Of a stretch of DNA of 64,000 nt, positions 1 to 43,668 are shown piece by piece. Made by a program: the position numbers and the translations under genes. Under the pieces are notes generated by a model, which saw nothing but the letters and a program-made list of their open reading frames with translations, was not told the origin of the DNA and made no database searches. The DNA comes from Deltaproteobacteria bacterium (lineage in GTDB: Bacteria > UBA10199 > JACPAL01), in contig JACPAK010000001.1 of the NCBI GenBank assembly GCA_016180845.1, positions 225,707-289,706 of the forward strand, given 5' to 3'. How positions within the stretch are numbered: position 1 is the stretch's first letter; each line of letters begins with the position of its first letter.

Positions 1-565
1 CATCCACTGGATCCGCGTCCTTCCAACCTTCGAGGGGACATTTCCCCATTTCCGGATGAGGCTCTTCCCGTTGCCCTGTCTTCACTGTGATAACCCCCCC
101 TGCACGAAGGTCTGTCCCGTGAGTGCAACGTATAAGAGTGAGGAGGGAATTGTCGGTCAGATTTTTGCCCGCTGTATCGGCTGTCGCTACTGCACGACCG
201 CCTGCCCCTATACCGTACGCGAGTTTAACTGGCGAAAACCGGTCTGGCCGGAGGAGATGAAACCAATCCGGAATCGGGATGTGTCGGTTCGTCCCAAGGG
301 GGTCGTCGAAAAGTGTACACTCTGCACCCACCGCCTCCAAAAGGGACGTGAAAAGGCCCGCGTGGAAAGGCGCGAAATGATCCCGGAGGACTACATACCT
401 GCTTGCGTGGAAATCTGTCCTTCACAGGCGATGATCTTCGGAGACCTCGACGATCCCGAGAGCGAGGTCTCAAAGCTGGTTCGAAGCCGTCGTGCCTTTC
501 GCCTGATGGAGGATCTCGGCACGGAACCCAAGGTGATCTATCTTTCGGAAGGAGGAGGCGACTAA
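1..565 (+). CDS. 4Fe-4S ferredoxin-type subunit of a molybdopterin-oxidoreductase-like complex (NrfC/PsrB/ActB family). C-terminal part only; the reading frame is open to the window edge.
   Basis: Several CxxCxxCxxxCP ferredoxin motifs (CLHCDNPPCTKVCP, CIGCRYCTTACP, CTLCTHR..., CVEICP). No stop codon upstream in frame back to position 2. An NrfD-like gene follows with a 1-nt gap. Confidence 0.7.
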   Translation, partial: IHWIRVLPTFEGTFPHFRMRLFPLPCLHCDNPPCTKVCPVSATYKSEEGIVGQIFARCIGCRYCTTACPYTVREFNWRKPVWPEEMKPIRNRDVSVRPKGVVEKCTLCTHRLQKGREKARVERREMIPEDYIPACVEICPSQAMIFGDLDDPESEVSKLVRSRRAFRLMEDLGTEPKVIYLSEGGGD

Positions 566-1894
566 ATGAAGGTCAGCGAACAGGATAGAATTCTTCTCAA
601 ACCTGTGGAACAGACCACAAAGCGATTTTGGATCACCGCCGGAATCCTCTTTTCCATCTGGTTTATCGGCTTCCTGGCCTATCTGAAACAATTCTACGGC
701 GGTCTTGGAGTCACCGGCCTTTCGCGACCAACCTATTGGGGGATCTATATTACCAATTTTGTTTTCTTCATCGGTATATCCCACGCAGGGACACTCATCT
801 CGGCAATCCTCCGAATTTCCCAAGCGGAGTGGAGACGGGCCATCACTCGATCGGCCGAGGTCATCACTGTCATGGTCCTCCTTTTTGGTGTGGGTAATAT
901 CCTAATCGATTTGGGTCGGCCGGATCGGATGCTGAACGTGCTCAAACATCCGCACTTCACCTCCCCCCTCCTGTGGGATGTCACAAGCATCACCTGCTAT
1001 CTGACCGCTTCGACGATCTATCTCTATCTCCCGCTGATCCCCGACATTGCACGACTCCGTGACCATGGAACCAAGTGGAAAGGATTTTATCGCCTGCTCG
1101 CCCTCGGCTGGCAAGAAACACCCCGGCAGAAGAAAATCCTTGAAAGATTGATTTCGATTATGGCGATTGTTGTCATCCCGATCGCGGTCTCCGTCCACAC
1201 TGTGGTGAGCTACGTCTTTTCCATGACGATTCAGCCGATGTGGCACTCTGCCATCTTTGGCCCCTACTTCGTCGTTGGGGCGATCTTCTCCGGAATCGCC
1301 GCCCTCATGATTGCGATGGCAATCATCCGCAAGGTCTACCATCTGGAGGAGTACTTGAAGGAGATCCATTTTAATTACCTCGGCATCCTCCTCCTTGTGA
1401 TGGCGCTCCTCTGGTTTTACTTCACCTTTTGCGAGTATCTGACCGTCTTCTACGGCAGTGAACCTCTGGAGATGCAGATCTTCATGTCCAAGATCACCGG
1501 CCCCTACGCCCTCTATTTCTGGACGATGGTCGCCTGCTGTTTCGTGATCCCGTTTGTGATCCTTGCCAACCGGAGGACGCGCACGGTCAAGGGGACGGTC
1601 ATTGCCTCCATTGCCGTAACGATCGGAATGTGGCTGGAGCGTTTCACGATCGTCGTCCCATCGCTCGTCAACCCACGTCTCCCTTATGCGAGGGGGACCT
1701 ATTATCCAACGCTCACTGAACTCGCAATCACCGCCGGATGTTTTGCCGCCTTTATCCTCCTGTATATGACCTTTACGAAGATCTTCCCGATCGTTTCTAT
1801 CTGGGAGATCGAGGAAGGGCGCGAGTCCTCTCTTCGAGAAGTTCATGAGAGGGTTAAGGGGTATCTTCCAGGAATGGGAGGGAAATCGGAATGA
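566..1894 (+). CDS. NrfD/PsrC/ActC-family polytopic membrane quinone-interacting subunit, about 10 TM helices
   Basis: 442-aa hydrophobic protein with an NrfD-like pattern, translationally coupled to the Fe-S subunit. Its length and roughly 10 helices resemble ACIII ActC/ActF. Confidence 0.7.
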   Translation: MKVSEQDRILLKPVEQTTKRFWITAGILFSIWFIGFLAYLKQFYGGLGVTGLSRPTYWGIYITNFVFFIGISHAGTLISAILRISQAEWRRAITRSAEVITVMVLLFGVGNILIDLGRPDRMLNVLKHPHFTSPLLWDVTSITCYLTASTIYLYLPLIPDIARLRDHGTKWKGFYRLLALGWQETPRQKKILERLISIMAIVVIPIAVSVHTVVSYVFSMTIQPMWHSAIFGPYFVVGAIFSGIAALMIAMAIIRKVYHLEEYLKEIHFNYLGILLLVMALLWFYFTFCEYLTVFYGSEPLEMQIFMSKITGPYALYFWTMVACCFVIPFVILANRRTRTVKGTVIASIAVTIGMWLERFTIVVPSLVNPRLPYARGTYYPTLTELAITAGCFAAFILLYMTFTKIFPIVSIWEIEEGRESSLREVHERVKGYLPGMGGKSE

Positions 1895-3024
1895 GGATTT
1901 TTCTCGTCAGCATGTTTTTTATTGTGGCATCTCACGGATTGGTGTCTGCACAACAAAATTTCCCGCAGTCTCCCGTGCAGGGAGACCGGCTCTTTTCTGA
2001 AAAAGGATGTTCGAAATGTCACTCAATCCTCGGTCAAGGAGGTCGTGTCGGTCATGACCTGGGGAAGATCAACTTGAAAGGCTCGCGTTTGGATGTTGCG
2101 AGCGCGATGTTAAACAACGCCCAAACGATGGGAAACAAGATGCGGGAGATGAAGATCATTCGACCCCATCTGACCGGCACCGAGATTGAGAGCCTGATCG
2201 CCTTTCTCTATTATGTAAACTATTTCGATGAACCGGGAAACTCGACAAGCGGAAAGAGTCTCTTCAAGGATCGCCAATGTATCCGTTGCCATACCGATCC
2301 CTCTTCATTCCCGCGAGGGATGACGCCGATTTATCTTGCCAAGACACTCTGGAATCACGGCCCCCGGATGTGGACGCAGATGTCACGGCAAGGAATCCCT
2401 TGGCCACGGTTTGAGGGAATGGAGATGATGGACCTCGTCGCCTTCCTGAGGGAAACGGCACGGACTGAGTCAGTGGCGATGTATGGATCCCCCGGAAACC
2501 CGAATGAGGGGAAAAAGGTCTTTCGGAGCAAGGGGTGCCCCCAGTGCCACGGCGGTCATGACGACAGAACCGTACCGAATTTGGCGGATCCAACCCTTGG
2601 ACTGCAGGTGAGCCTTACTCAAACAGTCTCCCGACTCTGGAACCATGCCCCGCAAATGTTCTCACGTTTCAGTGAAAAGGGTCTGGAGGCGCCTCACTTC
2701 ACCGAAAGGGAGATCGCCGACCTCGTCGCCTATATCTACTTTCTCAACTATTTTGATTCCCCGCCAGATTTAACAGCCGGGCGAAAGCTCTTTGCAGAAA
2801 AACAATGCAGTACCTGTCACTCGCTCGGTGGAGGAATCCAGGGGGCTGGTCCCGATCTTTCGGTCAGTCAAAAATCCTCCTCGTCAATCGATATGGTGGC
2901 AGCGATGTGGAATCACACCCCCTTCATGCATTCAGTCATGCAGGAAAAAGAGATCCCCTGGCCTCGATTTGACAGGGGGGAACTAAATAATCTTTTGGGC
3001 TATATTCAGTCCCTGAAAAAATAA
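1891..3024 (+). CDS. Tetraheme cytochrome c made of four tandem class-I mono-heme domains, with a signal peptide
   Basis: Four CxxCH motifs (CSKCH, CIRCH, CPQCH, CSTCH), each followed by a conserved WNH.P.M / EI..L.A(Y/F) repeat about 90 aa long. N-terminal signal peptide. ATGA start/stop overlap with the upstream gene. Confidence 0.75.
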   Translation: MRIFLVSMFFIVASHGLVSAQQNFPQSPVQGDRLFSEKGCSKCHSILGQGGRVGHDLGKINLKGSRLDVASAMLNNAQTMGNKMREMKIIRPHLTGTEIESLIAFLYYVNYFDEPGNSTSGKSLFKDRQCIRCHTDPSSFPRGMTPIYLAKTLWNHGPRMWTQMSRQGIPWPRFEGMEMMDLVAFLRETARTESVAMYGSPGNPNEGKKVFRSKGCPQCHGGHDDRTVPNLADPTLGLQVSLTQTVSRLWNHAPQMFSRFSEKGLEAPHFTEREIADLVAYIYFLNYFDSPPDLTAGRKLFAEKQCSTCHSLGGGIQGAGPDLSVSQKSSSSIDMVAAMWNHTPFMHSVMQEKEIPWPRFDRGELNNLLGYIQSLKK

Positions 3025-3032
3025 TGGCTGAA

Positions 3033-3329
3033 TTATTGTGCTGGCGTTCCTGGCTCCGCAGGAGCTTCAATCACCGGATGATGCCACCCCTTCATCTTAT
3101 CGCGATCGCAGCAACCTTTGATCCCCAGATAGGCGCTGCAGAGGATCGAAAGAATCGAGGCGATGGTCACAAGACCACCGATGATCTTTCCAGTTTTTTT
3201 ACAGAAAAACCCTTCGCCACAGGCCTTGTTCAGGAGCAGGACACCTGAGACCAAGGCGATGAACTGAAGGGCCAAAGCGGCATGCAGATGAAGATGCGAA
3301 CCGTGCATACAAGCCATATGTTCCATCAT
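3033..3329 (-). CDS. Small His/Cys-rich two-TM membrane protein; last gene of the cytochrome operon
   Basis: ATG at 3329 preceded by an AAAGGGGGA Shine-Dalgarno. Sequence MMEHMACMHGSHLHLH followed by two hydrophobic helices. The ORF-track start is an upstream GTG. Confidence 0.45.
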   Translation of the reverse strand: MMEHMACMHGSHLHLHAALALQFIALVSGVLLLNKACGEGFFCKKTGKIIGGLVTIASILSILCSAYLGIKGCCDRDKMKGWHHPVIEAPAEPGTPAQ

Positions 3330-3389
3330 AGATTGTCCCCCTTTTGGTTTGGATTCTATTATCACAAATATTAAAGGAGTCGACAGAAT

Positions 3390-3677
3390 TTATGGCGCCC
3401 CATTCGTTCCATGACAAGCGGCACAACCAGAAACCCCTTCTTGAAGGGCATGATCGTGTACCACCTCAATATCCACAAGCCCGCCGGTACGATCGATCAA
3501 GTGGATGTTATCCAGATTATGACAGGTGGTGCAGTCGCTCCGTCCCCAACCGATCTCATGCTCCGATTCTGTAAGAGCAAGCCCTTCCGGTGAATCCAAC
3601 AGGTTTCCGTAATTTTCCCCCTGATTGACGACACTCCCGCAGGAGATGAAGAACAACAAACCGAAGATTATTATCAT
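3390..3677 (-). CDS. Diheme cytochrome c lipoprotein
   Basis: Signal peptide with an LFFISC lipobox-like Cys, then CTTCH and CAACH heme motifs. ATGA overlap with the upstream heptaheme gene. Confidence 0.7.
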   Translation of the reverse strand: MIIIFGLLFFISCGSVVNQGENYGNLLDSPEGLALTESEHEIGWGRSDCTTCHNLDNIHLIDRTGGLVDIEVVHDHALQEGVSGCAACHGTNGAP

Positions 3678-4228
3678 CGTTTAGAACTCCCTCTTCCTGA
3701 ATGACACTCCTGACAGTAATTGATTGTATGACAGGCATCACACTTCCTCGGATTCGCGCGCGCCTCGACCGAATGAAAAAAACGGAAGTTTCGACGATGC
3801 ATCCGTTGCTGAACGGTATCCCGTCGGCTGTGACAGTCGACACAAAACCGTTTATTTGTGTGACAGGTTTCACACTCCTTCGGATTCTGTTTGGCAGAGA
3901 TCTGGTGTCTCGCCTTCCAATCGAGCCGATGACTCTTCGGCTTCGGTGGTCCCTCGAGATGACAGGTCACGCACGGCTTTTTGACATCGAGGATTGGCTT
4001 CGGGCTGTTGTGGCAAAGATGACATCCTTCCTTGTTGACCTTGTTCCGATCACCAAAGGACTCTGGATCGGCATGGCAGGTCTCGCAGGCAACCGACGCC
4101 GCCTCAAAAATCCCGGTATGCATCTCGTGATCGTAGAGATCAAAGGGGTGTTTTTTCTTCGCCTCAACCTTCATCGGAATCAAAAACAGGAGGCTTAGCG
4201 CAAAAATGATTTTATAGGATCGACCCAT
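3674..4228 (-). CDS. Periplasmic heptaheme cytochrome c
   Basis: Signal peptide followed by seven CxxCH motifs (CETCH, CHLCH, CVTCH, CETCH, CVDCH, CDACH, CQECH) in about 160 mature residues. Confidence 0.8.
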   Translation of the reverse strand: MGRSYKIIFALSLLFLIPMKVEAKKKHPFDLYDHEMHTGIFEAASVACETCHADPESFGDRNKVNKEGCHLCHNSPKPILDVKKPCVTCHLEGPPKPKSHRLDWKARHQISAKQNPKECETCHTNKRFCVDCHSRRDTVQQRMHRRNFRFFHSVEARANPRKCDACHTINYCQECHSGRGSSKR

Positions 4229-5489
4229 AGCGGTACTCCAATTTTAGTGATCCCCTCACATCCCGTTCCAAAAGATTGTTCCGATTGTACTCCCCACCGA
4301 TAGAAAGCCGGAGGTTGTGCGGAAACTCATAACCTGTCCAGACAATCGTCGAAAAGGCGCTGTCATTATCACTCGTAATCTTGTCGTACGTGGCATAATC
4401 AAACGACAATTCTCCGTATCCCTTTTTCAGGAGTGTCTTGTAGACAAAAAAACGGATCCCATGGACATCGCCACCGAAACTCTTTGCAAAAGAATATTGA
4501 GGGCCAAAATCGAGCTCAAGATTTTCAAGAGAAAAAGGGAAACCTATTTCGAGCAGATGGGCCCGCCGATGATCCGCCTCGCGAACCTCCATCCATTGGT
4601 AGGAATAACTTTGGGTAAGGTCGAGAAAATTTTTAATGAGTATCCAGTTCGAAGAAAACCGACCGGTGATTAGTTCCCCTTCGGAAAAAAGACTCAAGAT
4701 CGACCGCCGTGTCGACTCCCGATTCGCATTGAAATAATTCCCTTCGATCCCGATCGAAACAATAGAGAAAGGAGCCATATCAACGCCAAGGGTCCCCGTC
4801 TCTAGTGTCTTCGATCCGGTCTCATACTCAACAAGTCCTGAAATGAGCGGCCTCATCGATCCGGAAAAGAGGTAGGAGAGTGATGAACCGACCCGGATCT
4901 CGTCGTTTCTCCCCAGATCGGTCTCTCCCCAATCATTTTTCTGCCAGGCGGTTGATAATCGCGCCTGAAATCCTGATCCATTTTGCCAATCCAGAAAAAG
5001 CCCGGAGAGGAGTTGGTCATGATGGTGAAAATCCCCCTCTTCCACGCGTCTCGGAATTCCACCGTAGGTTCCGATACGAAAATTCTCTGTCGGATTGAGT
5101 GTTAACTGCAACCCATCGATAATCCCTGTCGAAAAACCGGGATTTAAAAATTGTCGACCAAAATCGATCTGAAACGATTCACGAGGCCTGACATGGAGAA
5201 CTGTTTGATAGAGATCATAATCATCCAAGGAACGATCGAGATCCCGGAAGAAGCGCATATCTGATTCGCCAGAAAATCTTCCGTCCGGCCTTCTCAGTCC
5301 CATACCCAGATAGCCATTGAGGGGGATCTCCGTCTCGTTTTTATCATTCTGACGAACTTGACTCAAAAGAGTTGTATTCAGATGGAACGGACTTCCCCAA
5401 ACAGGGGCTGAGAAGAGAAAAAGGGAGATGAATAATAAGGCACGCTCAACCACGTTATTCAAACCCCTCTGTCGTGAATGTCCATACAT
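4212..5489 (-). CDS. Outer-membrane beta-barrel protein, a candidate porin of a porin-cytochrome complex
   Basis: A signal peptide (RALLFISLFLFSAPVWG) follows an internal ATG (M53 of the ORF). About 420 residues of alternating amphipathic beta-strand pattern, and the protein ends in Y-R-Y-G-S-I-L. It sits between the giant and the heptaheme cytochromes. The start could instead be the M40 ATG at 5528. Confidence 0.6.
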   Translation of the reverse strand: MYGHSRQRGLNNVVERALLFISLFLFSAPVWGSPFHLNTTLLSQVRQNDKNETEIPLNGYLGMGLRRPDGRFSGESDMRFFRDLDRSLDDYDLYQTVLHVRPRESFQIDFGRQFLNPGFSTGIIDGLQLTLNPTENFRIGTYGGIPRRVEEGDFHHHDQLLSGLFLDWQNGSGFQARLSTAWQKNDWGETDLGRNDEIRVGSSLSYLFSGSMRPLISGLVEYETGSKTLETGTLGVDMAPFSIVSIGIEGNYFNANRESTRRSILSLFSEGELITGRFSSNWILIKNFLDLTQSYSYQWMEVREADHRRAHLLEIGFPFSLENLELDFGPQYSFAKSFGGDVHGIRFFVYKTLLKKGYGELSFDYATYDKITSDNDSAFSTIVWTGYEFPHNLRLSIGGEYNRNNLLERDVRGSLKLEYRYGSIL

Positions 5490-8400
5490 GATTTGTCGCC
5501 AATCGATTTCCGGCAAGATCTTGTGCATTCGTTGTGACTGTTGCCCGATAGACCGTCTCCTCACGAAGTGGCCGGGCATTGGTGGCAATCGTAAAATCAA
5601 CCGCCTGGCATGTCGCCGTCCGGCAATGGACGTTTCCACTGACACTTAACCACTCCCATCTCCGGGTTCTACTATTCCAATTCCTTCTTGAAAGGGTGAA
5701 GACGCCGGAAGACTCGACACTCGCCCGAATCATCGCCTCATTAAAATTAACTGTGATGATTGTGGTCGATGTCAAAACATCAGTCGCGCCGTTCGTGGGT
5801 ACCGTCGAATTCACAATCGGCCGAGTCGTGTCTGGGGTCAGGGTCGTAAAGGTCCAGCGATAATCTGTCGCTAGCGGCGTGCCGCCCCAGTCTGTCACCA
5901 CCGTGGTAATCCTTCCTCGATATTGGGTGTTCGGTTGCAGCGGGGTCTCCGGTGAAAAGGTCGCCGTCAGACACCAGTCGGCACTGCAAGCGACACGCCC
6001 TGCCACCCGACTTCCATCCGAAACCTTTTCCACAACAAAACTGTTTTCGACTGGAGGCGCTATTGTGCTGCGCAACATCGGCTCACTGAATGTAATTCTG
6101 ATGGTTGTCGGCGAGAAGGGTGTTCCCAACGCAACTCCCGTCGCCCCATTCGTCGGTATCGTTGAGGAAACGGCCGGTGGACCACTAGCAACCTGGTCAT
6201 TCCCAGGGGGATTGCAGTCAGGGAGTTCCGGTGGGAAGGGACGACTGCTGCTGTGACAGACACCGCCACATGTGCTCTCTGTTCGATAAGAGCGGTTCCC
6301 ATTGGTATGGCAGGAACCGTCGCTCCCACAGCCGCCTCTGGCAACGCTATCAATATTGTTATCGAGTAAGTAGAGCACGTGACCGAAGTTGGCAGCCGTT
6401 CGGGAACCACAGGTCGAACTGACGACCGGTTCCCAATTGTAAGAAGTGGTCCGTGCCGTTGGCGGATCTCCGCTTGTGACGATTTGCTCATAACCGACAT
6501 GGGGATAGTTCTGGTGACACATATAACAATAGGATCGGGAGACGAGTGTCGCACGTGTCTGTGTCTCATTGAAGGCAGTGGGAGAACCGTCATGACATCC
6601 GCCGCAATCCGCCTCACCCCAAGTGGCTGACGTGAAGCGACTTGAATAGGACACACCATGCCCCGATCCCCGCCACCACGTTGATGATGAATGGGGATAA
6701 CTCGGGTGACAGGTGTAACAGGAGATTGTCGAGATCCCCCCTCCGTAATCGTCCCCGTGACAACTTCGACACCCAACCCGGCTGGCATTGAACCTATCTC
6801 CGTGACGGGCGCTACTACTGCCCGTAACCCAATCCTGATCCTCAGAAACATCAGGCGACCGCAGATGCGGGTAGTTCGGATGGCAGGCAGCAGAACCGCA
6901 GGAGGTTGCGCGTCCATCGGGGCCTGCACCGAAATTCAAATGACACCGTGTGCAGCTACTCCTTAAACCCCGAACACCGTCCAAATAGGCGGTCGTATGC
7001 TCCCCTCCCTGATCGGTCTTCCAGTCCGTAACAAGTTGATGCGGATAGTTTTCGTGACACCCTGAACCGGAACAGGATCGGCCGGAATTACCACCGGCAT
7101 AGTTGGTTCCATGACAGAGCGAGCACCTGTTAAACGAATCGGGGAAATCATTATCCTGTTGTTCCAGATACTCCGCCGCATGGGGGCTTGGAAAATTTGC
7201 TGCCCGGCTCCGCTCAACATCCCAACAAGTCGGTTCATCAGCGCCGTCACACTCCTGCTCCGTCCAGGTCTCTGTCCCCACCTCATATTCCGTCCAGCCG
7301 GACCGATGCGGGAAATTGGTATGACAGGAATAGCAATTACGCCCATCAAATTCCCTCTGAAAATCGGTCCCATGACAGCCGGCACAACGCAACTGACGAT
7401 TCGCATCGCTGATCGCGAACGGCCCGTGCTCCGTCGTTTCCCAGTTCGGCAATAATTCATGCGGGTAGAGATGGCACTGCAGGCAGGGACGCGCCGCAGC
7501 GGTCCCCGCTATCTCCCGGTTATGACAGGTCATACAATTGTTAAACCCATCCCTCAAGACAACAGCACCATGTCCTGCGGCCCCACGCCAGTTGTCCTGA
7601 CTGTGGGTCTCCGGGAAGCCACTGTGGCATTCATTACAATTCGCCCCACGTGTCCGCTGAAGGTCCGGGATCAGATTCACCCCGTGACACCGCGCAGTCC
7701 CGCAGGTTGCACGTCCGTTTTCCTGGACAAAGTCGCCATGGAGTTGCGGCTGCCCTTGCTCACGACGCCATCCCTCAGGATGCGGAAAGGGGTTATGGCA
7801 CTCCCCGCAGCGTCGATTCCCTCGTGGAGACGAATCAGAGGTCAGGGAATGACAAGTCCTGCATTCGTTACGCATCAGGACAGGAAGCGCATAGGATCCA
7901 TGTCCTTCAAATTCACGCCATCCGGAGGGATGAGAACCGGCAAATGAGGGATGGCAGGAGAAACAGTTTTGTCCCTTGAGAACCTTTTTGAGATCGGCTC
8001 CATGACAGAGCTGGCATTTTTCTGTCTCCCCCTGATAGGTCACACGAACACGCTCTCCATGCCCTCCTGAAAAAGGGATCCAAGTAGCACTCGCCGGATG
8101 GGGATAATCGGCATGACAGGTGGTGCAATTTTTCCCGGCAACTAGTCTCTCTCCCCGCTCTCCATGACACCCCTGACAGGCGGTGCGACCAAGCTCCAAT
8201 GAGGTGGGACCATGCTGCGTCTGCCACCCTTCCCCATGCGGATAGAGGGTATGACAACGATTGCAGGCGATCTGCGAAAGTCCTCCATTCAGATCAGCTC
8301 CATGGCATTGTGTCGTACATCCTTCCCTCCCATTATCCAGAACATAAGGGGCATGCTTGGTCTTTTCTCCCCAACCGACTTCATGGGGATAGATCGCATG

Positions 8401-9009
8401 ACACTTGAAACAACTGGTCCCGCTCGACCCCCCTTTCAGATCCTCTCCATGACAAGACCGGCAGAGATCCTTCCCTTCCCCTTTCGCAAACTCTCCGTGA
8501 AAATTAGCCCCCTTCCATTCGGAAGAATGGGGATAGACTTCGTGACACTTTGTGCAGGAAACCTTGGTCAATCCGCCCGAGAGATCGGTCCCGTGACATT
8601 GAGTCGCACATGAAAGGCGGTCATTGGTTCTGACCCAAGTCCCGTGTCTCTCTTTCGATTTCCAGTCAGCCTCATGCGGGTAAAGGGGATGACAGCCCTG
8701 ACATGTCGGTGTTCTCTCGTTGGTCGTCGAACTGACCTTATGACACTTGAGACAGGCCGGAAGTCCGTACCGCTCCTTGCCACTCCCATGAGAGGCTGGT
8801 TCTTTCCACCCCTGCGGATGGGGAAAAAGGGGAAGAGGTTCTGCGATATTTCCGTCCGGAGAAATGCTGGGGGTAAGATCAGAAACATCACGGGAATGGG
8901 GCTTCTTTTTGGCACATCCAAAAAGAAGAAAAAGAAGAAAAAAAAAGACTAACCCTCTGAAAAAGACACCCTGACGCCAAGATCGTGGCAAGCGAAGACC
9001 CTCCATCAA
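5455..9009 (-). CDS. Giant multiheme cytochrome c lipoprotein, about 1184 aa and roughly 30 heme sites, with two C-terminal bacterial Ig-like domains
   Basis: Lipoprotein signal peptide (…FLLFLLFGC). About 23 canonical CxxCH motifs plus about 7 CX3-5CH variants. Recurring CxxCHxxYPHxxxW module. The C-terminal 230 aa contain two TxPTNGATxV…F(S/N)EPM Ig-like repeats. Confidence 0.85.
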   Translation of the reverse strand: MMEGLRLPRSWRQGVFFRGLVFFFLLFLLFGCAKKKPHSRDVSDLTPSISPDGNIAEPLPLFPHPQGWKEPASHGSGKERYGLPACLKCHKVSSTTNERTPTCQGCHPLYPHEADWKSKERHGTWVRTNDRLSCATQCHGTDLSGGLTKVSCTKCHEVYPHSSEWKGANFHGEFAKGEGKDLCRSCHGEDLKGGSSGTSCFKCHAIYPHEVGWGEKTKHAPYVLDNGREGCTTQCHGADLNGGLSQIACNRCHTLYPHGEGWQTQHGPTSLELGRTACQGCHGERGERLVAGKNCTTCHADYPHPASATWIPFSGGHGERVRVTYQGETEKCQLCHGADLKKVLKGQNCFSCHPSFAGSHPSGWREFEGHGSYALPVLMRNECRTCHSLTSDSSPRGNRRCGECHNPFPHPEGWRREQGQPQLHGDFVQENGRATCGTARCHGVNLIPDLQRTRGANCNECHSGFPETHSQDNWRGAAGHGAVVLRDGFNNCMTCHNREIAGTAAARPCLQCHLYPHELLPNWETTEHGPFAISDANRQLRCAGCHGTDFQREFDGRNCYSCHTNFPHRSGWTEYEVGTETWTEQECDGADEPTCWDVERSRAANFPSPHAAEYLEQQDNDFPDSFNRCSLCHGTNYAGGNSGRSCSGSGCHENYPHQLVTDWKTDQGGEHTTAYLDGVRGLRSSCTRCHLNFGAGPDGRATSCGSAACHPNYPHLRSPDVSEDQDWVTGSSSARHGDRFNASRVGCRSCHGDDYGGGISTISCYTCHPSYPHSSSTWWRGSGHGVSYSSRFTSATWGEADCGGCHDGSPTAFNETQTRATLVSRSYCYMCHQNYPHVGYEQIVTSGDPPTARTTSYNWEPVVSSTCGSRTAANFGHVLYLLDNNIDSVARGGCGSDGSCHTNGNRSYRTESTCGGVCHSSSRPFPPELPDCNPPGNDQVASGPPAVSSTIPTNGATGVALGTPFSPTTIRITFSEPMLRSTIAPPVENSFVVEKVSDGSRVAGRVACSADWCLTATFSPETPLQPNTQYRGRITTVVTDWGGTPLATDYRWTFTTLTPDTTRPIVNSTVPTNGATDVLTSTTIITVNFNEAMIRASVESSGVFTLSRRNWNSRTRRWEWLSVSGNVHCRTATCQAVDFTIATNARPLREETVYRATVTTNAQDLAGNRLATNHVWTFTTEGFE

Positions 9010-9099
9010 TATTATCGTCCAATAAGGCCTTAGGTAGATATGATACAGATCATCCCTTCGTAGGGCAAAAAGGTTTACTTATCAAAAGGGGGTGATTTT

Positions 9100-9351
9100 A
9101 TGCCGGGCCTCCACGTCAAATTCGAGATCTCGCCAGAGGAGTTTCTCTCACATCTGGCCGATGCCGCCTATCAGGTCGCCTTGAAACAAGGTTTTCGGGG
9201 TTCCTTCATCGATCTCCGATTGGGCCTTCAGAGGGCACTTCATGAAATGATCCGGAAAGATATGTTCGTCACCGATCTCTGCGGTCTCTACACCATCTGC
9301 CAGGAGGCAGAAAAAATCGAGCCCTGGTCGGAAAAGGCAGAGGAAGTGTGA
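9100..9351 (+). CDS. Hypothetical small protein (83 aa)
   Basis: ATG with a strong GGGGGTGA Shine-Dalgarno. No recognisable motif. Confidence 0.4.
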   Translation: MPGLHVKFEISPEEFLSHLADAAYQVALKQGFRGSFIDLRLGLQRALHEMIRKDMFVTDLCGLYTICQEAEKIEPWSEKAEEV

Positions 9352-9419
9352 CCTTGCGCAGTCCGAAACCTGATACCGATCATACCTCTTTTCCCTGAAT
9401 ACGCTGAGTATCCTCATTG

Positions 9420-10274
9420 ATGTATACAATATTGAAAAAAGAGGTCTTTTCCCCAACAACATTCCTTTGGGAGGTCTTGGCACCTGATATTGCTCATGCG
9501 GCAAGGGCAGGCCAGTTTGTCATGGTCCACCTCAACTCCTATGGGGAAAGGATCCCGCTCACCATCGCGGATTTTGATCGGGAAAAAGGAACGATCACGC
9601 TTGTCGTCAAGGTAGTCGGAAAAACGACCGAGGAGATGTCGACCTATGCTGAAGGAGCGACCTTTCTTGATCTGGTCGGACCGTTGGGGACACCAAGCCT
9701 GGTCGAGCCACTCAACCATGTCGTCCTCGTCGGGGGAGGGATCGGCATCGCCCCACTTTTGCCTATCCTGAGGGAATTCCGAGAGACCGGAAGTTATGTC
9801 ACCGTCATCGTCGGTTTCAGGACAATGGGAGAGATTTTCTGGAAAGCTCGATTTGAAAAACTCGCCCACCAACTCGTTTTGATGACCGAAGACGGTTCCT
9901 CAGGAGAAAAGGGGACGGTGATTGATGGTCTGAAAAAAATCCTTTCCGAGGAAACCCCGATTGAAGAGGTCCTCGCGATCGGCCCGATCGGAATGATGCA
10001 GGCGGTCGCCGAAACAACCCGCCCCTGGGAAATACCGACGTTCGTCTCGATGAATCCGATCATGGTGGATGGGATCGGAATGTGTGGTTCGTGTCGTGTG
10101 AAGGTTGGCGACAAAATTCTTTTTGCCTGTGTCGATGGACCGGACATGAATGGTCACCTGGTTGATTTCAAAGAACTGAAGACCCGGCAAATCCGATTCT
10201 TCAATGAAGAGCAAAGATGCCTGAAGGCCTATCATGAGAGGCAGCCTCCGCTCACCCAAGGAGGGTCGAGATGA
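9420..10274 (+). CDS. PyrK-like FAD/NAD(P)-binding 2Fe-2S oxidoreductase subunit (NfnA / sulfide dehydrogenase SudB family)
   Basis: Ferredoxin-NADP reductase fold with the C-terminal GMCGSCRV…FACVDGP 2Fe-2S motif. ATGA coupling to the downstream GltD-like gene. Confidence 0.75.
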   Translation: MYTILKKEVFSPTTFLWEVLAPDIAHAARAGQFVMVHLNSYGERIPLTIADFDREKGTITLVVKVVGKTTEEMSTYAEGATFLDLVGPLGTPSLVEPLNHVVLVGGGIGIAPLLPILREFRETGSYVTVIVGFRTMGEIFWKARFEKLAHQLVLMTEDGSSGEKGTVIDGLKKILSEETPIEEVLAIGPIGMMQAVAETTRPWEIPTFVSMNPIMVDGIGMCGSCRVKVGDKILFACVDGPDMNGHLVDFKELKTRQIRFFNEEQRCLKAYHERQPPLTQGGSR

Positions 10275-11845
10275 ATCGGGAAACAAAAAAATTAAACCCG
10301 AACCGGATCCCGATGCCGGAACTCCCGATCGATGCCCGACGTCTCCTCTTTGAAGAGGTCAACTGCGGTTATACGTTCGAAGAGGCCCAGGAAGAGGCGA
10401 CGCGGTGTCTCTTCTGCAAAAAACCGTTTTGTATCCAGGGCTGTCCCGTTGAGATTGATATCCCCGGCTTTATCAAAAAGATCGTCGAGGGGGATCTTCA
10501 TAGGGCCTATTCGATTCTCAGGGAATCCAACCCCCTGCCTGCCGTCTGCGGCCGTGTCTGTCCTCAAGAGACCCAATGCGAGGCACGATGTGTCGTTGGC
10601 AAGAAAGGAACTCCCGTAGCGATCGGGTGGCTCGAGCGATTTGTCGGAGATTGGGCGCTCCAGCAAGGCGAAGCACTCTCTGGTTTTTCTGCGTCGTCAG
10701 GTGCCTCCGCGGCGACCTTTAGGGCGCTAGCAGCCAATGAACCTTCTCGCACAAAACGCGAGTTTTCATTGTCTTCTAGCACTCCTAAAGGGCCCGCCGC
10801 TCCTGGCAATGCCGACTCGAAAATTCCAGAGAGTGCTTCGCCGCTGAAAATTGCCATCATCGGCTCCGGTCCCTCCGGTCTTGCCTGCGCCCAGGATCTG
10901 GCAACAGCCGGCATCGATGTCACTATTTTTGAGGCACTGCATGAAGCGGGTGGCGTCCTCTCCTATGGAATCCCCCCCTTTCGACTCCCGCGTTCGATCG
11001 TCGCGAAGGAGATCGATCAGCTCAAACATCTGGGAGTTCATTTTGAACTTAACAAGGTCATCGGAAAAATTTTCACGATTGAAGAACTTCTTCGGGAAAA
11101 AGATTTTCAGGCAGTCTTTATCGGCACCGGCGCCGGTCTCCCCAAATTTTTAGGGCTCCCGGGAGAACAACTGAATGGGGTGATGAGCGCTAATGAATTC
11201 CTGACGCGTCTTAACCTGATGGGGGGATATCGGAAGGCCGATACGCCGGTCGGGATGGGGAATCAGGTCACCGTCATCGGGGCCGGCAATACCGCCCTCG
11301 ACTCTGCGAGGATCGCCCTGAGACTCGGTGCTACAGTCACTGTCGTTTATCGCCGGACAGAGAGTGAGTCCCCTGCCCGTGCGGAGGAGCTCCGCCATGC
11401 GAAGGAGGAGGGGGTCCGGTTCGAATGGCTCACCAATCCTTTAGGATATCTCGGTGACGATCATCACTGTGTGCGAACGATGCGTTGCCTCCGAATGGCC
11501 TTGGGAGAACCGGATGAATCGGGCCGACGTTCCCCCCATCCTCTCCCCGGCACGGAATTTGAGATCCCCACAGATACCGTGATCTACGCCTTGGGAACCG
11601 TCGCCAATCCGATCATCGGCCGAAGCACCTTGGGCCTTAAAACAAACCGCTGGGGGTATATCGAAGTCGATCCGGAAACCGGCATGACCTCTCTTCCCGG
11701 TGTCTTTGCGGGTGGTGATATTGTGACCGGAGCGGCGACAGTCATCCAGGCGCTTGGAGCCGGAAGAAAGGCGGCGCGGGGAATTTTGCGTTACCTGAAT
11801 AAAGAGAATGTGAAGGAGGTGAGTTATGCCGTCGCAATGCCCTAA
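10271..11845 (+). CDS. Glutamate-synthase-small-subunit-like NAD(P)H oxidoreductase (NfnB/SudA/GltD family), carrying a roughly 60-aa low-complexity in-frame insertion
   Basis: N-terminal 2x[4Fe-4S] Cys motifs (CLFCKKPFCIQGCP, CGRVCPQETQCEARC). IAIIGSGPSGLACA dinucleotide-binding fold. C-terminal GGDIVTGAATVI. Confidence 0.8.
   Translation: MNRETKKLNPNRIPMPELPIDARRLLFEEVNCGYTFEEAQEEATRCLFCKKPFCIQGCPVEIDIPGFIKKIVEGDLHRAYSILRESNPLPAVCGRVCPQETQCEARCVVGKKGTPVAIGWLERFVGDWALQQGEALSGFSASSGASAATFRALAANEPSRTKREFSLSSSTPKGPAAPGNADSKIPESASPLKIAIIGSGPSGLACAQDLATAGIDVTIFEALHEAGGVLSYGIPPFRLPRSIVAKEIDQLKHLGVHFELNKVIGKIFTIEELLREKDFQAVFIGTGAGLPKFLGLPGEQLNGVMSANEFLTRLNLMGGYRKADTPVGMGNQVTVIGAGNTALDSARIALRLGATVTVVYRRTESESPARAEELRHAKEEGVRFEWLTNPLGYLGDDHHCVRTMRCLRMALGEPDESGRRSPHPLPGTEFEIPTDTVIYALGTVANPIIGRSTLGLKTNRWGYIEVDPETGMTSLPGVFAGGDIVTGAATVIQALGAGRKAARGILRYLNKENVKEVSYAVAMP
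10667..10842. repeat. A 176-bp imperfect palindrome inserted in frame into the NfnB-like gene
   Basis: Perfect 17-bp terminal inverted repeats: ggcgaagcactctctgg … ccagagagtgcttcgcc. Internal arms are also reverse-complementary (tttagggcgctagcagccaatgaa vs ttcattgtcttctagcactcctaaa). It encodes an S/A/P-rich linker absent from homologues. Confidence 0.7.
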
Positions 11846-12443
11846 ATGCCGGCAAGTCCTCGATGAAGATTATATCTGTTGCGCCGACATCCAGCTCCAG
11901 TGGAAATGTGTTGATTGTCATAAGCGTTCGATCGGCTTCGCCTTCCCCTTCGGTCGCTGTTCCCTCTGCGGCGGCAATCTGACACGCGTTGAACCTGTGA
12001 AAGAATTATCCAGAAATATCCAGCTCCTTCAGGAGGCGCTCCAGATTGAAATCACGAGCTCTCTTTTCTATCGTCGTCTCTCGGAAGCGGTCGACGATCC
12101 TGAAATCAGCGATTTTTTTGAGACCATGTCCGATTGGGAAAAGGAACATGCGCGTGAACTAAGTCAGAAATACCACCTGCATCTCGGCGAAGAGATGTTT
12201 CAGGACGACAACCTCCCACTGCCGTTTCCTTTTTTCGACGATCTTTCATTTTTCGCGGCAACAGGCAATCTCCGTCGTCTCTATGATTGTGGGATCTCTC
12301 TTGAGAAAAAAACGCTTCGTTTTTTTGAGGAAAAGGCACGCCAGATGCCAATGAGTCGTGAGAAAGAGCTGTATCAAGAACTCGCCGCTGAGGAGAGAGA
12401 CCATATCGCGCTTCTCGAATCAGAAAGGGACAAGAGGTGTTAA
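11826..12443 (+). CDS. Rubrerythrin/ferritin-like diiron protein with an N-terminal zinc-ribbon
   Basis: CPKC…C…CHK…CSLC zinc-ribbon, then ExxH motifs (EKEHAREL, ERDHIALL) typical of rubrerythrin-like four-helix-bundle diiron sites. Confidence 0.6.
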   Translation: MPSQCPKCRQVLDEDYICCADIQLQWKCVDCHKRSIGFAFPFGRCSLCGGNLTRVEPVKELSRNIQLLQEALQIEITSSLFYRRLSEAVDDPEISDFFETMSDWEKEHARELSQKYHLHLGEEMFQDDNLPLPFPFFDDLSFFAATGNLRRLYDCGISLEKKTLRFFEEKARQMPMSREKELYQELAAEERDHIALLESERDKRC

Positions 12444-13381
12444 TGTCAAAAGAACTCTTAAAAAAATTGGGAGCTGGGGAGACGATCGATGTTCGGGCTG
12501 ACGGGAAGGCAGGGAGTGGACTCGTGATGATCCTCCAGACCTTCGCCGAGGCGGTTTCCCTCAAGGGAGACTATCAGGTCCAGGAGTGGCCCTTTTTCAG
12601 TTCGGCCCGAAAAGGGGCGAATGTCCGCGGCTATCTCCGGATCGGGAAGGGACCAACATTTATCTCCTGCAAGGTGGATAAACCCCACCTCGCCCTGCTC
12701 GTTAGCGAAAAAACGGGGGAAGAACTCGACTTTGCGAGCGGCATGAATGAAGGAATCTATCTCATCAATAGTCCACGAAGCCCGGCAGAGACGGCAGACA
12801 GCTTCCACCTTCGAGGCCTCGTTTACACCATCCCGGGAGATCAGTTGGGGGAAAAATATCTCGGTCGCCCGCTCCCGAACATCCCGCTCTTAGCCGCCAT
12901 GCAGACGGCGCTCCCGCTCGTCTCCTCGACAGAGATACTCAAGGCCCTCGAAGATATCGGAAGGAAGAGGCGGCTCCCTGAGAAGATGATCGAGGCCAAC
13001 AAGACCTGTTTTCTCGAATCCCTTAAACTGATCCGGAGGGAGGAGATCCCGGGAGACCCTTCATGGAAACATCCACTCCCCCCGTTTGAGGGGTATCTCG
13101 ATTATCCGACAGGGGCCCAGAGCCGGCTTCGGACAAGTCTTTCAAACCAGACAGCGAACTACGCCCGGCCCGGGAGAAGGCTGGTCTTCCACGATCCGGA
13201 AAATCGCTGTAACGGCTGTAGTCTCTGCATCGTCAATTGTCCGGAGGGGATTATTCAATTTGAAAAGGATGAAAAGCAGGGTGTTCGCGTCACGGGAGCG
13301 AACATCGACCAATTCTGCAAACTTTGCCGTGAGTGTATTGAGGTCTGTCCCATCGATCTTTTTGAGGAGGTTGGATGCTGA
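12443..13381 (+). CDS. 2-oxoacid:ferredoxin oxidoreductase gamma-delta fusion subunit (POR/KOR/VOR family)
   Basis: N-terminal gamma-type domain, then C-terminal 2x[4Fe-4S] motifs (CNGCSLCIVNCP, CKLCRECIEVCP). Confidence 0.75.
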   Translation: MSKELLKKLGAGETIDVRADGKAGSGLVMILQTFAEAVSLKGDYQVQEWPFFSSARKGANVRGYLRIGKGPTFISCKVDKPHLALLVSEKTGEELDFASGMNEGIYLINSPRSPAETADSFHLRGLVYTIPGDQLGEKYLGRPLPNIPLLAAMQTALPLVSSTEILKALEDIGRKRRLPEKMIEANKTCFLESLKLIRREEIPGDPSWKHPLPPFEGYLDYPTGAQSRLRTSLSNQTANYARPGRRLVFHDPENRCNGCSLCIVNCPEGIIQFEKDEKQGVRVTGANIDQFCKLCRECIEVCPIDLFEEVGC

Positions 13382-13448
13382 TAAAGGCCCATCTGCTGCG
13401 TTACCTTGCATCTGGGACCTTTCTCAACATCCTTTTGGAGTGCCCAAG

Positions 13449-14759
13449 ATGACAAACCCAGCCGAAAAACTTTACGGTCGCTCCTTTCCAGGGATCATTG
13501 ATCTGGAAATGATTCGCAAATTACATCGACCTCTTTACCGGGAACGTCAAAGGGTCCAGAAGGATGGCAACGAGGCGGCAGCAATCGCGTCGCTCCAGTT
13601 CTGGAGGTCACCGATCTACGCTGGTTTTCCGATCACCCCCTCGACGAAATGGCTCGAGACGATCGCTGCCTCTGTAAACGGCGGTCGTTTTGTCATTGAA
13701 AGAAATGGCCAAAAGATCAGCACGAAACGGGTGAAACTCCTCGAGGCGGAGCATGCGGTTGCCGATTATCTCGCAGGGGCTGCTGCCGCCTGTCGCGAGC
13801 TGATCTTCATGACTGCCACTTCTTCTGTCGGTCTGGATCATATGACCGAGACGACACGTTCGCTTGGGGCCAGTGGGCTTGGAAATATCATGCTCATCAA
13901 TGTCTATCGAGCCACCGCCAATTATCCCCTCTGCATCGAAGGAGACCCTTCGGATACGCTGGCCCATCGGGATGACGGCTGGATCCAGGTGGTCTGCCGC
14001 GGGAAACAACAAATCTACGACACACTTCTCCAGCTTCCCTGCATCGGGATGCACCCTGATATCCTGATCCCGACAATGCCCGGCTTCTACGGAATCAAGG
14101 ACAGCCATCGCAGCGAACCGTTTTTTGTCGAACCGGATGAAAAGATCCATTCCTTTCAGGACAGTCTTTTGCCCGATCATTGCCATCTTCCCGGACTCAT
14201 CACAGGTGACACCTCCATGGGCAATTGTGTGACGAGCCCCTATTTTCAGGGATTCAAATGGGAACAGAGGCAGAGACTCGATCGTGTCTTTCACATCTTA
14301 AAAAGGACCTCAGCTGAATTTCAGCGGGAATTTGGTCGGCCGGGGATTGAACCGATCGAGACCTATTCCCTGGACGACTCCCCTCCGGTCATCCTCGTCG
14401 CCATGGGACCCGATACCACCACTGCATGGGAGGTACTTCGCCAGAAACGACAGGAGGGACAAAAAATCGGCCTCGTCGTGATCCGACTCCTCACTCCTTT
14501 TCCCCTCAATCTCGTCCGGCAGGCGCTTCGCTCCGCAGAAGCGGTGGGGGTTGTAAACAACGCCTTTCAATCAGAACGCGGGCATCTCACGGCGCTCGTG
14601 AGCGAGGCGGTCAACAATCTCCCGATAAAAACGGTCGGGTTCTTTACCGGCCTCGGCGCCGCCGACATCTCGACAGACTCATGGGAAAAGATGATCCGGC
14701 TGACGACGACCCTGAAAGAAGGGGGAAGCTGCTTCATCTATCGGGGGGAGGCGCTATGA
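13449..14759 (+). CDS. 2-oxoacid:ferredoxin oxidoreductase alpha subunit
   Basis: PorA/KorA-like sequence (YAGFPITPSTKWLE…). The ATG at 13449 follows the gamma-delta gene. The ORF-track N-terminal extension overlaps the upstream gene and is rejected. Confidence 0.75.
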   Translation: MTNPAEKLYGRSFPGIIDLEMIRKLHRPLYRERQRVQKDGNEAAAIASLQFWRSPIYAGFPITPSTKWLETIAASVNGGRFVIERNGQKISTKRVKLLEAEHAVADYLAGAAAACRELIFMTATSSVGLDHMTETTRSLGASGLGNIMLINVYRATANYPLCIEGDPSDTLAHRDDGWIQVVCRGKQQIYDTLLQLPCIGMHPDILIPTMPGFYGIKDSHRSEPFFVEPDEKIHSFQDSLLPDHCHLPGLITGDTSMGNCVTSPYFQGFKWEQRQRLDRVFHILKRTSAEFQREFGRPGIEPIETYSLDDSPPVILVAMGPDTTTAWEVLRQKRQEGQKIGLVVIRLLTPFPLNLVRQALRSAEAVGVVNNAFQSERGHLTALVSEAVNNLPIKTVGFFTGLGAADISTDSWEKMIRLTTTLKEGGSCFIYRGEAL

Positions 14760-16477: not shown

Positions 16478-16870
16478 TCAGATCTGATCGATCGTCGTTC
16501 CTTCCGCCCACTTCCGGAAGGCTGACTTGACCTCTTTCCAGGAAGAATGGAGGGGACAGTGGTGGGCCCCTCCGCACCGCTTCCAGCCAAAAATGCAATG
16601 TCCGTCCCCTGATGGATAACCGATGGCCCTTAAAATATCATCGATCCGGATTGATTCCGGGGGAGAGGCGAGTCGGTATCCGCCATCAGGCCCCTTGCGG
16701 GAGAGAAGAAGTCTCTTGCGAACGAGCGATCTCAAGACTTTAAAGAGAAAAGGAAGGGGAACATGGGTTAATCGGGCGAGGTCGCTGGCGTTAATCCCTC
16801 GATCAACACCCTGTCTCATGATCTCAACCATCACTCGCAACGCATATTCTGCTGTCTTCGGAAGCTGCAT
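16478..16870 (-). CDS. Rrf2-family transcriptional regulator (IscR/NsrR-like) with three Fe-S ligand cysteines
   Basis: N-terminal MQLPKTAEYALRVM HTH. C-terminal C-x6-C-x5-C cluster (CIFGWKRCGGAHHC). Divergent from the nxr-like operon. Confidence 0.7.
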   Translation of the reverse strand: MQLPKTAEYALRVMVEIMRQGVDRGINASDLARLTHVPLPFLFKVLRSLVRKRLLLSRKGPDGGYRLASPPESIRIDDILRAIGYPSGDGHCIFGWKRCGGAHHCPLHSSWKEVKSAFRKWAEGTTIDQI

Positions 16871-16976
16871 AAAAAATATTCTAAGATGAACCATACCGAA
16901 ATCACCTGACCACAATCATGTGATCGGCTGATTCGAATCATTCTCTCGAGACACGACTTCTCGATAATGGACCTTG

Positions 16977-25846: not shown

Positions 25847-26088
25847 AGATAAAACTCCGTTTTTTCTCACTGCTTCATCATTACTTTGGCACCGGAGAAA
25901 TGGAAACCAATCTTGATTCTCCAAAAACCGTTCAAGAAGTTTTTTTTGATCTGTTTGAGGACAAGGAACTCGCGGAGAAACTAGCGCGATCGATCCGGTT
26001 TGCCGTGAACTGGGAATATGTCGAGCCGGAGATGGTCGTCCACGAAGGTGACGAAGTCGCATTTATACCACCTGTTAGCGGAGGATAG
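25843..26088 (+). CDS. moaD: Molybdopterin synthase sulfur-carrier subunit MoaD
   Basis: 81 aa ending in GG. ATGA overlap with moeA. Confidence 0.75.
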   Translation: MKIKLRFFSLLHHYFGTGEMETNLDSPKTVQEVFFDLFEDKELAEKLARSIRFAVNWEYVEPEMVVHEGDEVAFIPPVSGG

Positions 26089-26090
26089 AG

Positions 26091-28033: not shown

Positions 28034-28035
28034 AC

Positions 28036-41905: not shown

Positions 41906-43668
<1,763 letters not shown>

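Follow-up and report, generated by a model that had tools for sequence, protein, structure and literature searches.

Gram-negative bacteria rely on porin-cytochrome conduits to exchange electrons with partner cells, electrodes and minerals. To our knowledge, the Mtr complex is the only one of these conduits that has been solved structurally. In that structure (6r2q), the porin MtrB has 26 strands. We analyzed a stretch of 64,000 nucleotides (nt) from a Deltaproteobacteria bacterium (assembly GCA_016180845.1, contig JACPAK010000001.1, positions 225,707 to 289,706 of the forward strand), referred to below as the window, which carries on its minus strand a cluster of five genes that we call A to E. 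An earlier note on this DNA had read the cluster as an operon for a porin-cytochrome conduit that resembles MtrCAB, PioAB and Cyc2 and is built around a roughly 30-heme lipoprotein. Groundwater sequencing runs SRR12113431 and SRR12113425 yielded the same DNA, and its proteins are 100% identical to proteins of a metagenome-assembled genome labelled Deltaproteobacteria bacterium, where they are annotated as hypothetical or as containing an Ig-like domain; this lineage may belong to the candidate phylum UBA10199 of GTDB. Sequence comparison and structure prediction indicate that genes A to D probably encode a porin-cytochrome complex of the Pcc type, which would pass electrons across the outer membrane.

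As defined by Shi et al. (PMC4245776), a Pcc system comprises a porin-like protein predicted to have 18-22 strands, a periplasmic cytochrome whose 5-14 heme motifs are all typical, and an outer lipoprotein cytochrome. The latter is extremely diverse, has 1-15 typical motifs and alone carries atypical ones, and co-evolution is confined to the porin and the periplasmic cytochrome (PMC4245776). Dester_0351 and Theam_0871, which neighbor the pcc clusters of group III in Desulfurobacterium and Thermovibrio, have six CX2CH and two atypical motifs (PMC4245776). In the Ext and OmcB clusters of Geobacter, the outer lipoprotein is often replaced by a non-orthologous one while the periplasmic cytochrome is kept (PMC6148476). 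The PCC3 systems of neutrophilic Fe(II) oxidizers, found in Proteobacteria, combine a repeat-built extracellular cytochrome (median 34 hemes) with a periplasmic cytochrome (median 21 hemes) and an inner-membrane protein of ~300 amino acids (aa) that has five helices and two WX3HX13H motifs (PMC5566968).

Organization of the gene cluster

Five minus-strand open reading frames (ORFs) lie between positions 3033 and 9009, and the ORF table verified the coordinates that the earlier note had given for them. The cluster has the following features.

5455..9009, minus strand: A, putative outer lipoprotein multiheme cytochrome of 1184 aa (ORF, motif counts, Pfam)
6253..8754, minus strand: heme region of A, aa 86-919, with 15 tandem di-heme units (motif and repeat analysis)
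5458..6183, minus strand: two Big_5 (SbsA-type) immunoglobulin (Ig)-like domains at the C-terminus of A (Pfam PF13205)
4212..5489, minus strand: B, Cys-free outer-membrane protein of 425 aa, predicted beta-barrel (AlphaFold2)
3674..4228, minus strand: C, secreted hepta-heme cytochrome c of 184 aa (ORF, motifs, alignment)
3390..3677, minus strand: D, di-heme lipoprotein cytochrome of 95 aa (ORF, motifs)
3033..3329 (or 3326), minus strand: E, small membrane protein of ~98 aa, possible accessory (ORF, sequence reading)
9040..9068, minus strand: the only sigma-70-like promoter match upstream of A, weak evidence (promoter scan)

According to the sequence and the ORF table, A and B overlap by 35 nt and B and C by 17 nt, and C and D share an ATGA (4 nt). 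Gene D is followed by a 60-nt gap before the ATG at 3329, with no overlap. The overlapping unit is therefore made up of four genes, A to D, and not of five. The operon had been described as overlapping throughout at starts and stops, which is correct for the first three junctions and incorrect for the last. Separate transcripts had been named as one of the findings that would refute the conduit reading; at the level of sequence, the overlaps of A to D argue against such an arrangement. When the products were compared with NCBIfam, A, B, C and E had no family and D had one sub-threshold match.

The barrel protein

B has a signal peptide, 393 mature residues and no Cys. We modeled it with AlphaFold2 using an alignment of 33 relatives as input. 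The model is all-beta, with the signal helix followed by 22 strands (predicted local distance difference test, pLDDT, 86.4; predicted template modeling score, pTM, 0.74), and all connecting loops are 17 aa or shorter, with neither a plug nor an additional domain. Along the strands, hydrophobic and polar residues alternate with a mean difference of 2.08, compared with 1.36 ± 0.22 in 500 shuffles. On the basis of this model, B is confidently predicted to be a 22-strand outer-membrane barrel, which agrees with the beta-barrel outer-membrane protein of about 420 residues proposed earlier. Among the invariant or nearly invariant residues, 33 face the lumen and 17 the lipid (Fisher p 0.015).

For n = 22 and a shear number taken as 24, standard barrel geometry yields a radius of ~20 Å and a diameter of ~40 Å at the C-alpha atoms. 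Since the predicted loops are short and no plug is present, nothing in B itself should be able to close this pore; a plug-less barrel of 22 strands would leave a very wide opening if no partner protein occupied it.

A word-indexed search recovered 35 relatives of B, nearly all of ~410-440 aa and all unnamed or hypothetical. An exhaustive profile search recovered 272 clusters at 50% identity (E ≤ 1e-3), and most of the 150 matches listed were ~400-440 aa long. The distant matches that carried a name came exclusively from metagenome-assembled genomes (MAGs) of Deltaproteobacteria, Bdellovibrionota, Bdellovibrionales and Pseudomonadota, with no cultured organism among them.

The small cytochromes C and D

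C carries seven CXXCH motifs and no CX3-4CH motif behind a Sec-type signal ending in VEA/K. An alignment of 43 relatives revealed that all seven CXXCH motifs are invariant, together with H34, H37, H70, H100, H108, H144 and H152. With 14 His for seven hemes, all of the hemes are therefore presumably bis-His ligated. Mature C contains ~23 residues per heme and is denser in heme than MtrA, which has roughly 33 (PMC5566968). Pfam returned weak c3/c7 matches only, NCBIfam gave no match to C, and a sequence search of the PDB gave no significant one.

D has two CXXCH motifs and a lipobox, FIS/C. The lipobox is conserved in its relatives and is followed, only a few residues behind the lipidated Cys, by a conserved GENYG motif. 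Since this motif is conserved so close behind the lipidated Cys, the tether of D is expected to be short. C and D thus correspond to the periplasmic hepta-heme cytochrome and the di-heme lipoprotein cytochrome that the earlier note had named.

The giant cytochrome A

The N-terminus of A is a hydrophobic signal that ends in a lipobox, LLFG/C, and lipoboxes were found in all of the relatives examined, which bears out its description as a giant lipoprotein cytochrome. The figure of roughly 30 hemes is reached when non-canonical motifs are counted: A has 30 heme motifs, of which only 23 are CXXCH and seven are variants (three CX3CH, three CX4CH and one CX5CH). Because the variants replace canonical motifs at the same positions of the repeat, they are probably real heme sites. 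By our estimate, ordinary Cys and His frequencies would yield ~0.002 CXXCH per 1184 aa, and the density in A is orders of magnitude higher.

The motifs of A are strictly paired and form 15 successive di-heme units of ~48 aa each. A unit follows the pattern C-x2-5-CH ... 12-21 aa ... C-x2-4-CH-xx-YPH ... W ... HG, where the spacer between the paired motifs is 12 aa in 10 of the 15 units, and the heme region as a whole contains ~28 aa per heme. Most units offer four His for two hemes, so bis-His ligation is likely throughout. Sequence searches of the PDB with A and with a profile of its di-heme unit recovered the CXXCH motif and nothing more, and the unit thus appears to be without a solved relative by sequence.

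Pfam identified Big_5 in A at 2.6e-36, in two stretches that fill the last 240 residues, as well as Cytochrome_C7 and c3_2. Ig-like domains of the Big_5 type are regarded as typical of surface proteins. Relatives of A number 63 proteins of 700-1750 aa, nearly all labelled hypothetical, and Big_5 is among the precomputed domains of about a dozen of them.

Conservation across related loci

Related loci were gathered from genome and metagenome collections, and one further locus, L013, was found through C. In 13 distinct loci, B, C and D follow one another in this order on a single strand. C is the most conserved component: in the nearest MAG it is 86% identical to the window protein, compared with 70% for B and 37% for A, and within the closest clade identities to the window are 49-72% for C, 55-66% for D, 40-46% for B and 30-38% for A. 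The large lipoprotein cytochrome of the relatives has anywhere from 10 to 33 heme motifs; it is duplicated in tandem in L002, lies elsewhere in the locus in L003 and L005, and is sometimes split. In L013 it is replaced by a 10-heme lipoprotein with an MtrC domain. Because B-C-D keep their order while A diverges, moves or drops out, we assigned the core to these three genes. Comparative sequence evidence thus points to the barrel, the hepta-heme cytochrome and the di-heme lipoprotein as the conserved core and to the 30-heme A as an exchangeable outer module, so that the earlier picture of a system built around the 30-heme lipoprotein has to be turned around.

The close association of B with C bears on a simpler reading, in which there is no trans-membrane wire at all, B is an ordinary diffusion or substrate channel, and A, C and D are tethered, periplasm-facing cytochromes that store electrons or serve a reductase. 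Lipoproteins of many bacteria face the periplasm by default, and no family model links B to electron transfer, both of which agree with such an arrangement. It is nevertheless improbable, since C lies directly downstream of B in every locus that has downstream sequence, and since the modeled barrel, with its short loops and no plug, would stand wide open if no partner filled it. The Ig-like domains on A also argue against it, as does the much faster evolution of A relative to C, which is expected of an exposed component.

A further possibility is that B acts mainly as an export or assembly pore, similar to an usher or to Slam, and delivers A to the surface, with the small cytochromes as periplasmic donors outside the barrel. 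In Shewanella, MtrB is also needed for the correct placement of surface cytochromes, which lends this idea some plausibility. However, B lacks the plug and the periplasmic domains of an usher and consists of a barrel only, its conservation follows that of C and D and not that of A, and in L024 the 2 kb upstream of B-C-D contain no gene for a large cytochrome. We regard a primary role of B in export as very improbable.

Outside the closest clade, the core, or its B-C pair, could be followed into two further groups of loci. In L013 (465-15067), which belongs to a distant GC-rich lineage, B is 25% identical over its full length (E 1e-19), C 38% and D 41%, and the C homologue is itself a lipoprotein. 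In loci from Desulfurobacteriaceae MAGs (L009, which equals L025, and L010-L012), B is 23-27% identical (E 1e-11 to 1e-17) and C 38-44% over the C-terminal 120 aa (E ~1e-25 to 1e-28). Here B-C are followed by further multiheme cytochromes, a cytochrome b561 and a 24-heme protein, and D is absent. These loci also encode a 364-aa cytochrome with six CXXCH and two CX3-5CH motifs. Within the window's own clade, the barrel gene of L006 is followed on its strand by C, D and an extra 6-heme lipoprotein; the sequence of L008 stops within the barrel gene. Our searches of the literature turned up no description of this cluster or of the cytochromes of this clade.

The fifth gene behaves differently. As read from the sequence, its product, E, contains two hydrophobic segments, flanked by an N-terminus rich in His and Met (MMEHMACMHGSHLHLH) and a Cys/His-rich C-terminus. 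Neither Pfam nor NCBIfam gave a match to E. A homologue adjoins the cluster only in L003 (5985-6368, 77% identity, after D), a weak one is located 6 kb away in L007, and none occupies the position of E in the other related loci. The small His-rich membrane protein of the earlier note therefore exists as described, whereas the 60-nt gap and its recurrence beside the cluster in L003 only argue against its inclusion in the operon. E lies outside the conserved core, and it may be a metal-binding accessory.

Comparison with described conduits

Set against the definition of Shi et al., the three kinds of component are each represented. B has 22 predicted strands and overlaps the start of C by 17 nt; C has seven CXXCH, no atypical motif and a Sec-type signal; and A has a lipobox, seven atypical motifs, an identity of 30-38% to its relatives and relatives with 10-33 motifs. 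Atypical motifs occur in the outer cytochrome only, as Shi et al. had reported (PMC4245776). The Desulfurobacteriaceae loci were matched to the published group III pcc clusters because the motif count of their 364-aa cytochrome equals that of Dester_0351 and Theam_0871, and because of the cytochrome b. By sequence comparison, B and C thus appear to be distant homologues of the pairs in Desulfurobacteriaceae clusters that fit the description of Pcc group III.

The likeness to group III, as represented by Desulfurobacterium thermolithotrophum and Thermovibrio ammonificans, extends to the layout, to the distant full-length homologues of B and C in the Desulfurobacteriaceae loci and to the association with quinone-linked genes. 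Three differences stand out. B and C are only 23-27% and 38-44% identical to the Desulfurobacteriaceae pair, D is a conserved third core subunit here and is absent there, and the outer cytochrome has 30 motifs here as opposed to the 1-15 typical motifs reported for Pcc (PMC4245776). The resemblance to the OmbB-OmaB-OmcB type of Geobacter is one of published description.

By description, the cluster also resembles ExtABCD of G. sulfurreducens, which combines one periplasmic cytochrome, one barrel and two lipoprotein cytochromes, with a replaceable outer one (PMC6148476). However, ExtA has 12 hemes compared with seven in C, and ExtB has 18 predicted strands compared with 22 in B (PMC6148476). 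The Ext lipoproteins have 5 and 12 hemes as opposed to 2 and 30, and the gene order differs.

MtrCAB, MtoAB and PioAB share with the cluster a working principle, namely a barrel-sheathed heme wire joined to a surface lipoprotein cytochrome. MtrB is about 650-700 aa long and has 26-28 strands, unlike B with its 425 aa and 22 strands; 28 trans-membrane motifs had been predicted for MtrB (PMC4245776). B was rejected as an MtrB/PioB porin since it had no match to PF11854, was of the wrong size and did not have MtrB as its closest structure. Similarly, C was rejected as a decaheme cytochrome of the MtrA/MtoA/PioA type, as it has seven CXXCH motifs instead of ten and matched no decaheme family. Cyc2 likewise provides an electron route through the outer membrane, but it is a single polypeptide in which a monoheme cytochrome is fused to a smaller barrel, and B, which has no Cys, can have no fused heme site. 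The earlier note had likened the layout to conduits of the MtrCAB, PioAB and Cyc2 type; the barrel itself is not a relative of MtrB, PioB or Cyc2.

In PCC3, too, a repeat-built, very heme-rich outer cytochrome is found beside a porin and a periplasmic cytochrome. Membership in PCC3 was rejected: no gene for a five-helix protein of ~300 aa lies in or beside the cluster, where the sole membrane protein is E with its ~98 aa, and C has only seven hemes. In sum, the general layout of a porin-cytochrome conduit that the earlier note had recognized is upheld by the barrel model, the lipoboxes and the overlaps of A to D, while its conserved center and its family assignment needed correction.

Proposed mechanism

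We propose that C would sit inside B as an insulated heme wire, in the way that MtrA sits in MtrB, and that D, on its short lipid tether, would extend the chain to nine hemes at one mouth of the barrel. A would be located on the cell surface, where its 15 stacked di-heme modules could form a long heme wire and its Ig-like domains a spacer or an attachment tip, and would receive or donate electrons there. On the periplasmic side, soluble or membrane cytochromes would join the conduit to quinone modules of the NrfCD or cytochrome b type. The assignment to a Pcc-type complex is supported by the conservation of C and D above B and of A far below it, since this matches both the Pcc pattern (PMC4245776) and the replacement of outer lipoproteins in Ext clusters (PMC6148476).

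Several points weigh against this proposal. Searches of B found no Pfam family at E ≤ 0.01 and no NCBIfam family, and a bias of conserved residues toward the lumen is also usual in ordinary porins. The AlphaFold2 model of apo C was mediocre (pLDDT 72, pTM 0.43) and gave no fold match. Promoter and terminator scans of the cluster region yielded site counts no higher than in shuffles; since these scans were uninformative, the case for co-transcription of A to D consists of the overlaps. By sequence, A and D could lie on the surface or on the periplasmic face, and the clues to the direction of electron flow, which are presented below, conflict.

Neighboring genes and the direction of electron flow

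Convergent with the conduit genes is a candidate quinone-linked module (1..3024, plus strand) with the following features.

1..565, plus strand: NrfC/QrcC-like iron-sulfur (FeS) protein, cut by the start of the window (Pfam, NCBIfam)
566..1894, plus strand: NrfD-family membrane protein (Pfam, NCBIfam)
1891..3024, plus strand: cytochrome c with four class I domains (Pfam)

The NCBIfam matches of the NrfC and NrfD genes, QrcC (6.4e-68) and DsrP (3.3e-38), were both below the cut-off. The NrfC/NrfD-like module that had been reported beside the cluster is thus present at 1-1894, and its linkage to the conduit recurs in related loci. In L006 (403-8158) and L008 (3567-8774), NrfC, NrfD, the large cytochrome and the barrel share one strand and overlap or are separated by tiny gaps, which suggests a single operon for the quinone-type module and the conduit. 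In L002, L005 and L007, NrfC-NrfD lie nearby and not in the same string. Upstream of the conduit in L013 are a cytochrome b fused to 11 hemes and a NapC/NirT-type membrane protein with 7 hemes, whose architectures correspond to those of CbcL and ImcH in Geobacter, and NiFe hydrogenase genes are found downstream. A cytochrome b561 stands beside the conduit in L009. Gene neighborhoods thus suggest that B-C pairs adjoin quinone-interacting membrane modules in three lineages.

Other neighbors are of the respiratory or iron-related kind. Beside the conduit in L005 (1779-5708) is a cbb3-type oxidase (COX1 and a FixO/CcoP fusion) with a lipoprotein that combines di-heme c and an EB_dh domain. A 5-heme cytochrome, a Rieske protein and a cytochrome b fused to a di-heme cytochrome c are encoded in L008 (215-2994) and similarly in L007 (10061-12835). 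Convergent with the cluster and right after the D gene, L002 (10106-13034) and L007 (12836-15770) encode FeoB and a DtxR-type repressor with a FeoA domain, which is a possible iron connection and would be compatible with Fe(II) oxidation or with another link to iron.

These neighborhoods suggest different directions. The tetraheme-NrfCD modules, CbcL/ImcH-like proteins and hydrogenase of relatives are clues to export, while the cbb3 oxidase, the Rieske/cytochrome b complex and the nearby class I cytochromes are clues to uptake. We tentatively and only slightly favor outward flow, in which insoluble Fe(III), Mn(IV) or similar acceptors would be respired, over inward flow driven by the oxidation of Fe(II), Mn(II) or minerals, for which we see a lesser chance.

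In the uptake scenario, the same hardware would oxidize extracellular Fe(II), Mn(II), a reduced mineral or a cathode and pass the electrons to the periplasmic cytochrome c pool. From there they would reach a periplasmic oxyanion reductase or a cbb3 oxidase, and modules of the NrfCD or bc type would drive the reverse flow to quinone. The oxidase of L005 and the Rieske/cytochrome b genes with di-heme c of L007 and L008 are consistent with this, as are the cytochrome with four class I domains behind NrfCD in the window, the FeoB and iron-dependent repressor genes that abut the cluster in L002 and L007, and the fusion of the gamma subunit of a nitrite oxidoreductase (NXR)-like enzyme, described below, to a class I cytochrome c. 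A giant outer cytochrome is, moreover, a usual feature of PCC3 in Fe(II) oxidizers (PMC5566968). The genes that adjoin the cluster on its other side encode a 2-oxoacid:ferredoxin oxidoreductase, an NfnAB-like pair and a rubrerythrin. This combination is reminiscent of lithoautotrophs such as Nitrospira and Leptospirillum. Uptake remains slightly the less likely direction, however: distant relatives of the conduit occur in strict anaerobes (Desulfurobacteriaceae) and beside CbcL/ImcH-like proteins, which serve electron export in Geobacter, and beside a hydrogenase; the NXR-like enzyme is unlinked to the conduit in all other loci; and bis-His hemes carry no information on direction.

The NXR-like enzyme belongs to another region of the window (16478-24240), which comprises an Rrf2 regulator on the minus strand, an operon for a type II enzyme of the DMSO-reductase family with a twin-arginine translocation (TAT) signal, and a hemerythrin. 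The operon encodes alpha (1150 aa, from 16974), FeS beta and gamma subunits as well as a NarJ-like chaperone. In the gamma subunit, an EB_dh heme-b domain is fused to a class I cytochrome c domain, which suggests that the enzyme contacts the periplasmic cytochrome pool. Candidate substrates are nitrite/nitrate, chlorate, selenate or similar. The periplasmic NXR-like enzyme that had been placed about 8 kb from the cluster is thus present and carries a TAT signal; what did not hold is its link to the conduit. Because no relative of its alpha subunit was found in any of the related loci, we dropped the enzyme from the system.

Among the remaining genes of the window, the block divergent from the cluster and upstream of it (9100-15784) comprises an 83-aa ORF, the NfnAB-like pair (DHODB Fe-S/NAD-binding and GltD-like), the rubrerythrin and the 2-oxoacid:ferredoxin oxidoreductase. 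In L003 (1-3911), this block is kept beside B-C-D-E at 62-72% identity up to the rubrerythrin, where the contig ends. Downstream of the NXR-like operon (24629-28941) are MoeA-, MoaD-, MoaA- and MoaC-like ORFs, as judged from their first residues, which would point to the biosynthesis of molybdenum cofactor. At 40715-45172, judged from N-terminal sequences, a porin-like ORF precedes ORFs that resemble Amt, P-II (GlnB) and glutamine synthetase; in L010 and L011, too, GlnA/GlnB-like ORFs are found a few kb upstream of the conduit, probably by coincidence.

A more far-reaching version of the uptake scenario, which we consider a long shot, would make B-C-D a distinct minimal nine-heme conduit family that is spread over several uncultured lineages and carries different surface modules. 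A would then be a monomeric, lipid-anchored "nanowire" of ~20 nm, assembled from 15 tandem copies of a 48-residue di-heme fold without a solved relative, whose Ig-like tip docks on minerals or partner cells. Such a conduit would supply a lithotrophic chain in which electrons from the oxidation of Fe(II), Mn(II) or a mineral enter the periplasmic cytochrome c pool, a cbb3 oxidase or the NXR-like oxyanion reductase.

Significance

The kind of system described here, a porin-cytochrome conduit, is already known. Clusters with very large outer cytochromes (24-61 heme sites) are regularly reported from genomes and MAGs (PMC5566968; PMC13013709). Since such clusters are now routine, a specialist would be interested rather than surprised. 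What is new is an uncharacterized barrel family with no Pfam or NCBIfam model, an obligatory three-gene core with an inner chain of nine hemes, and a regular outer cytochrome of 15 units. With 393 mature barrel residues and 7 + 2 hemes, the compact B-C-D would be a small and tractable target for structural work, to which A adds a regular, repeat-built 30-heme protein whose unit is without a solved relative by sequence. The B-C-D family was found almost entirely in uncultured bacteria, groundwater MAGs included. Since B is recognized by neither Pfam nor NCBIfam, catalogs of iron-cycle genes would be expected to miss it, and the B-C-D family would extend them.

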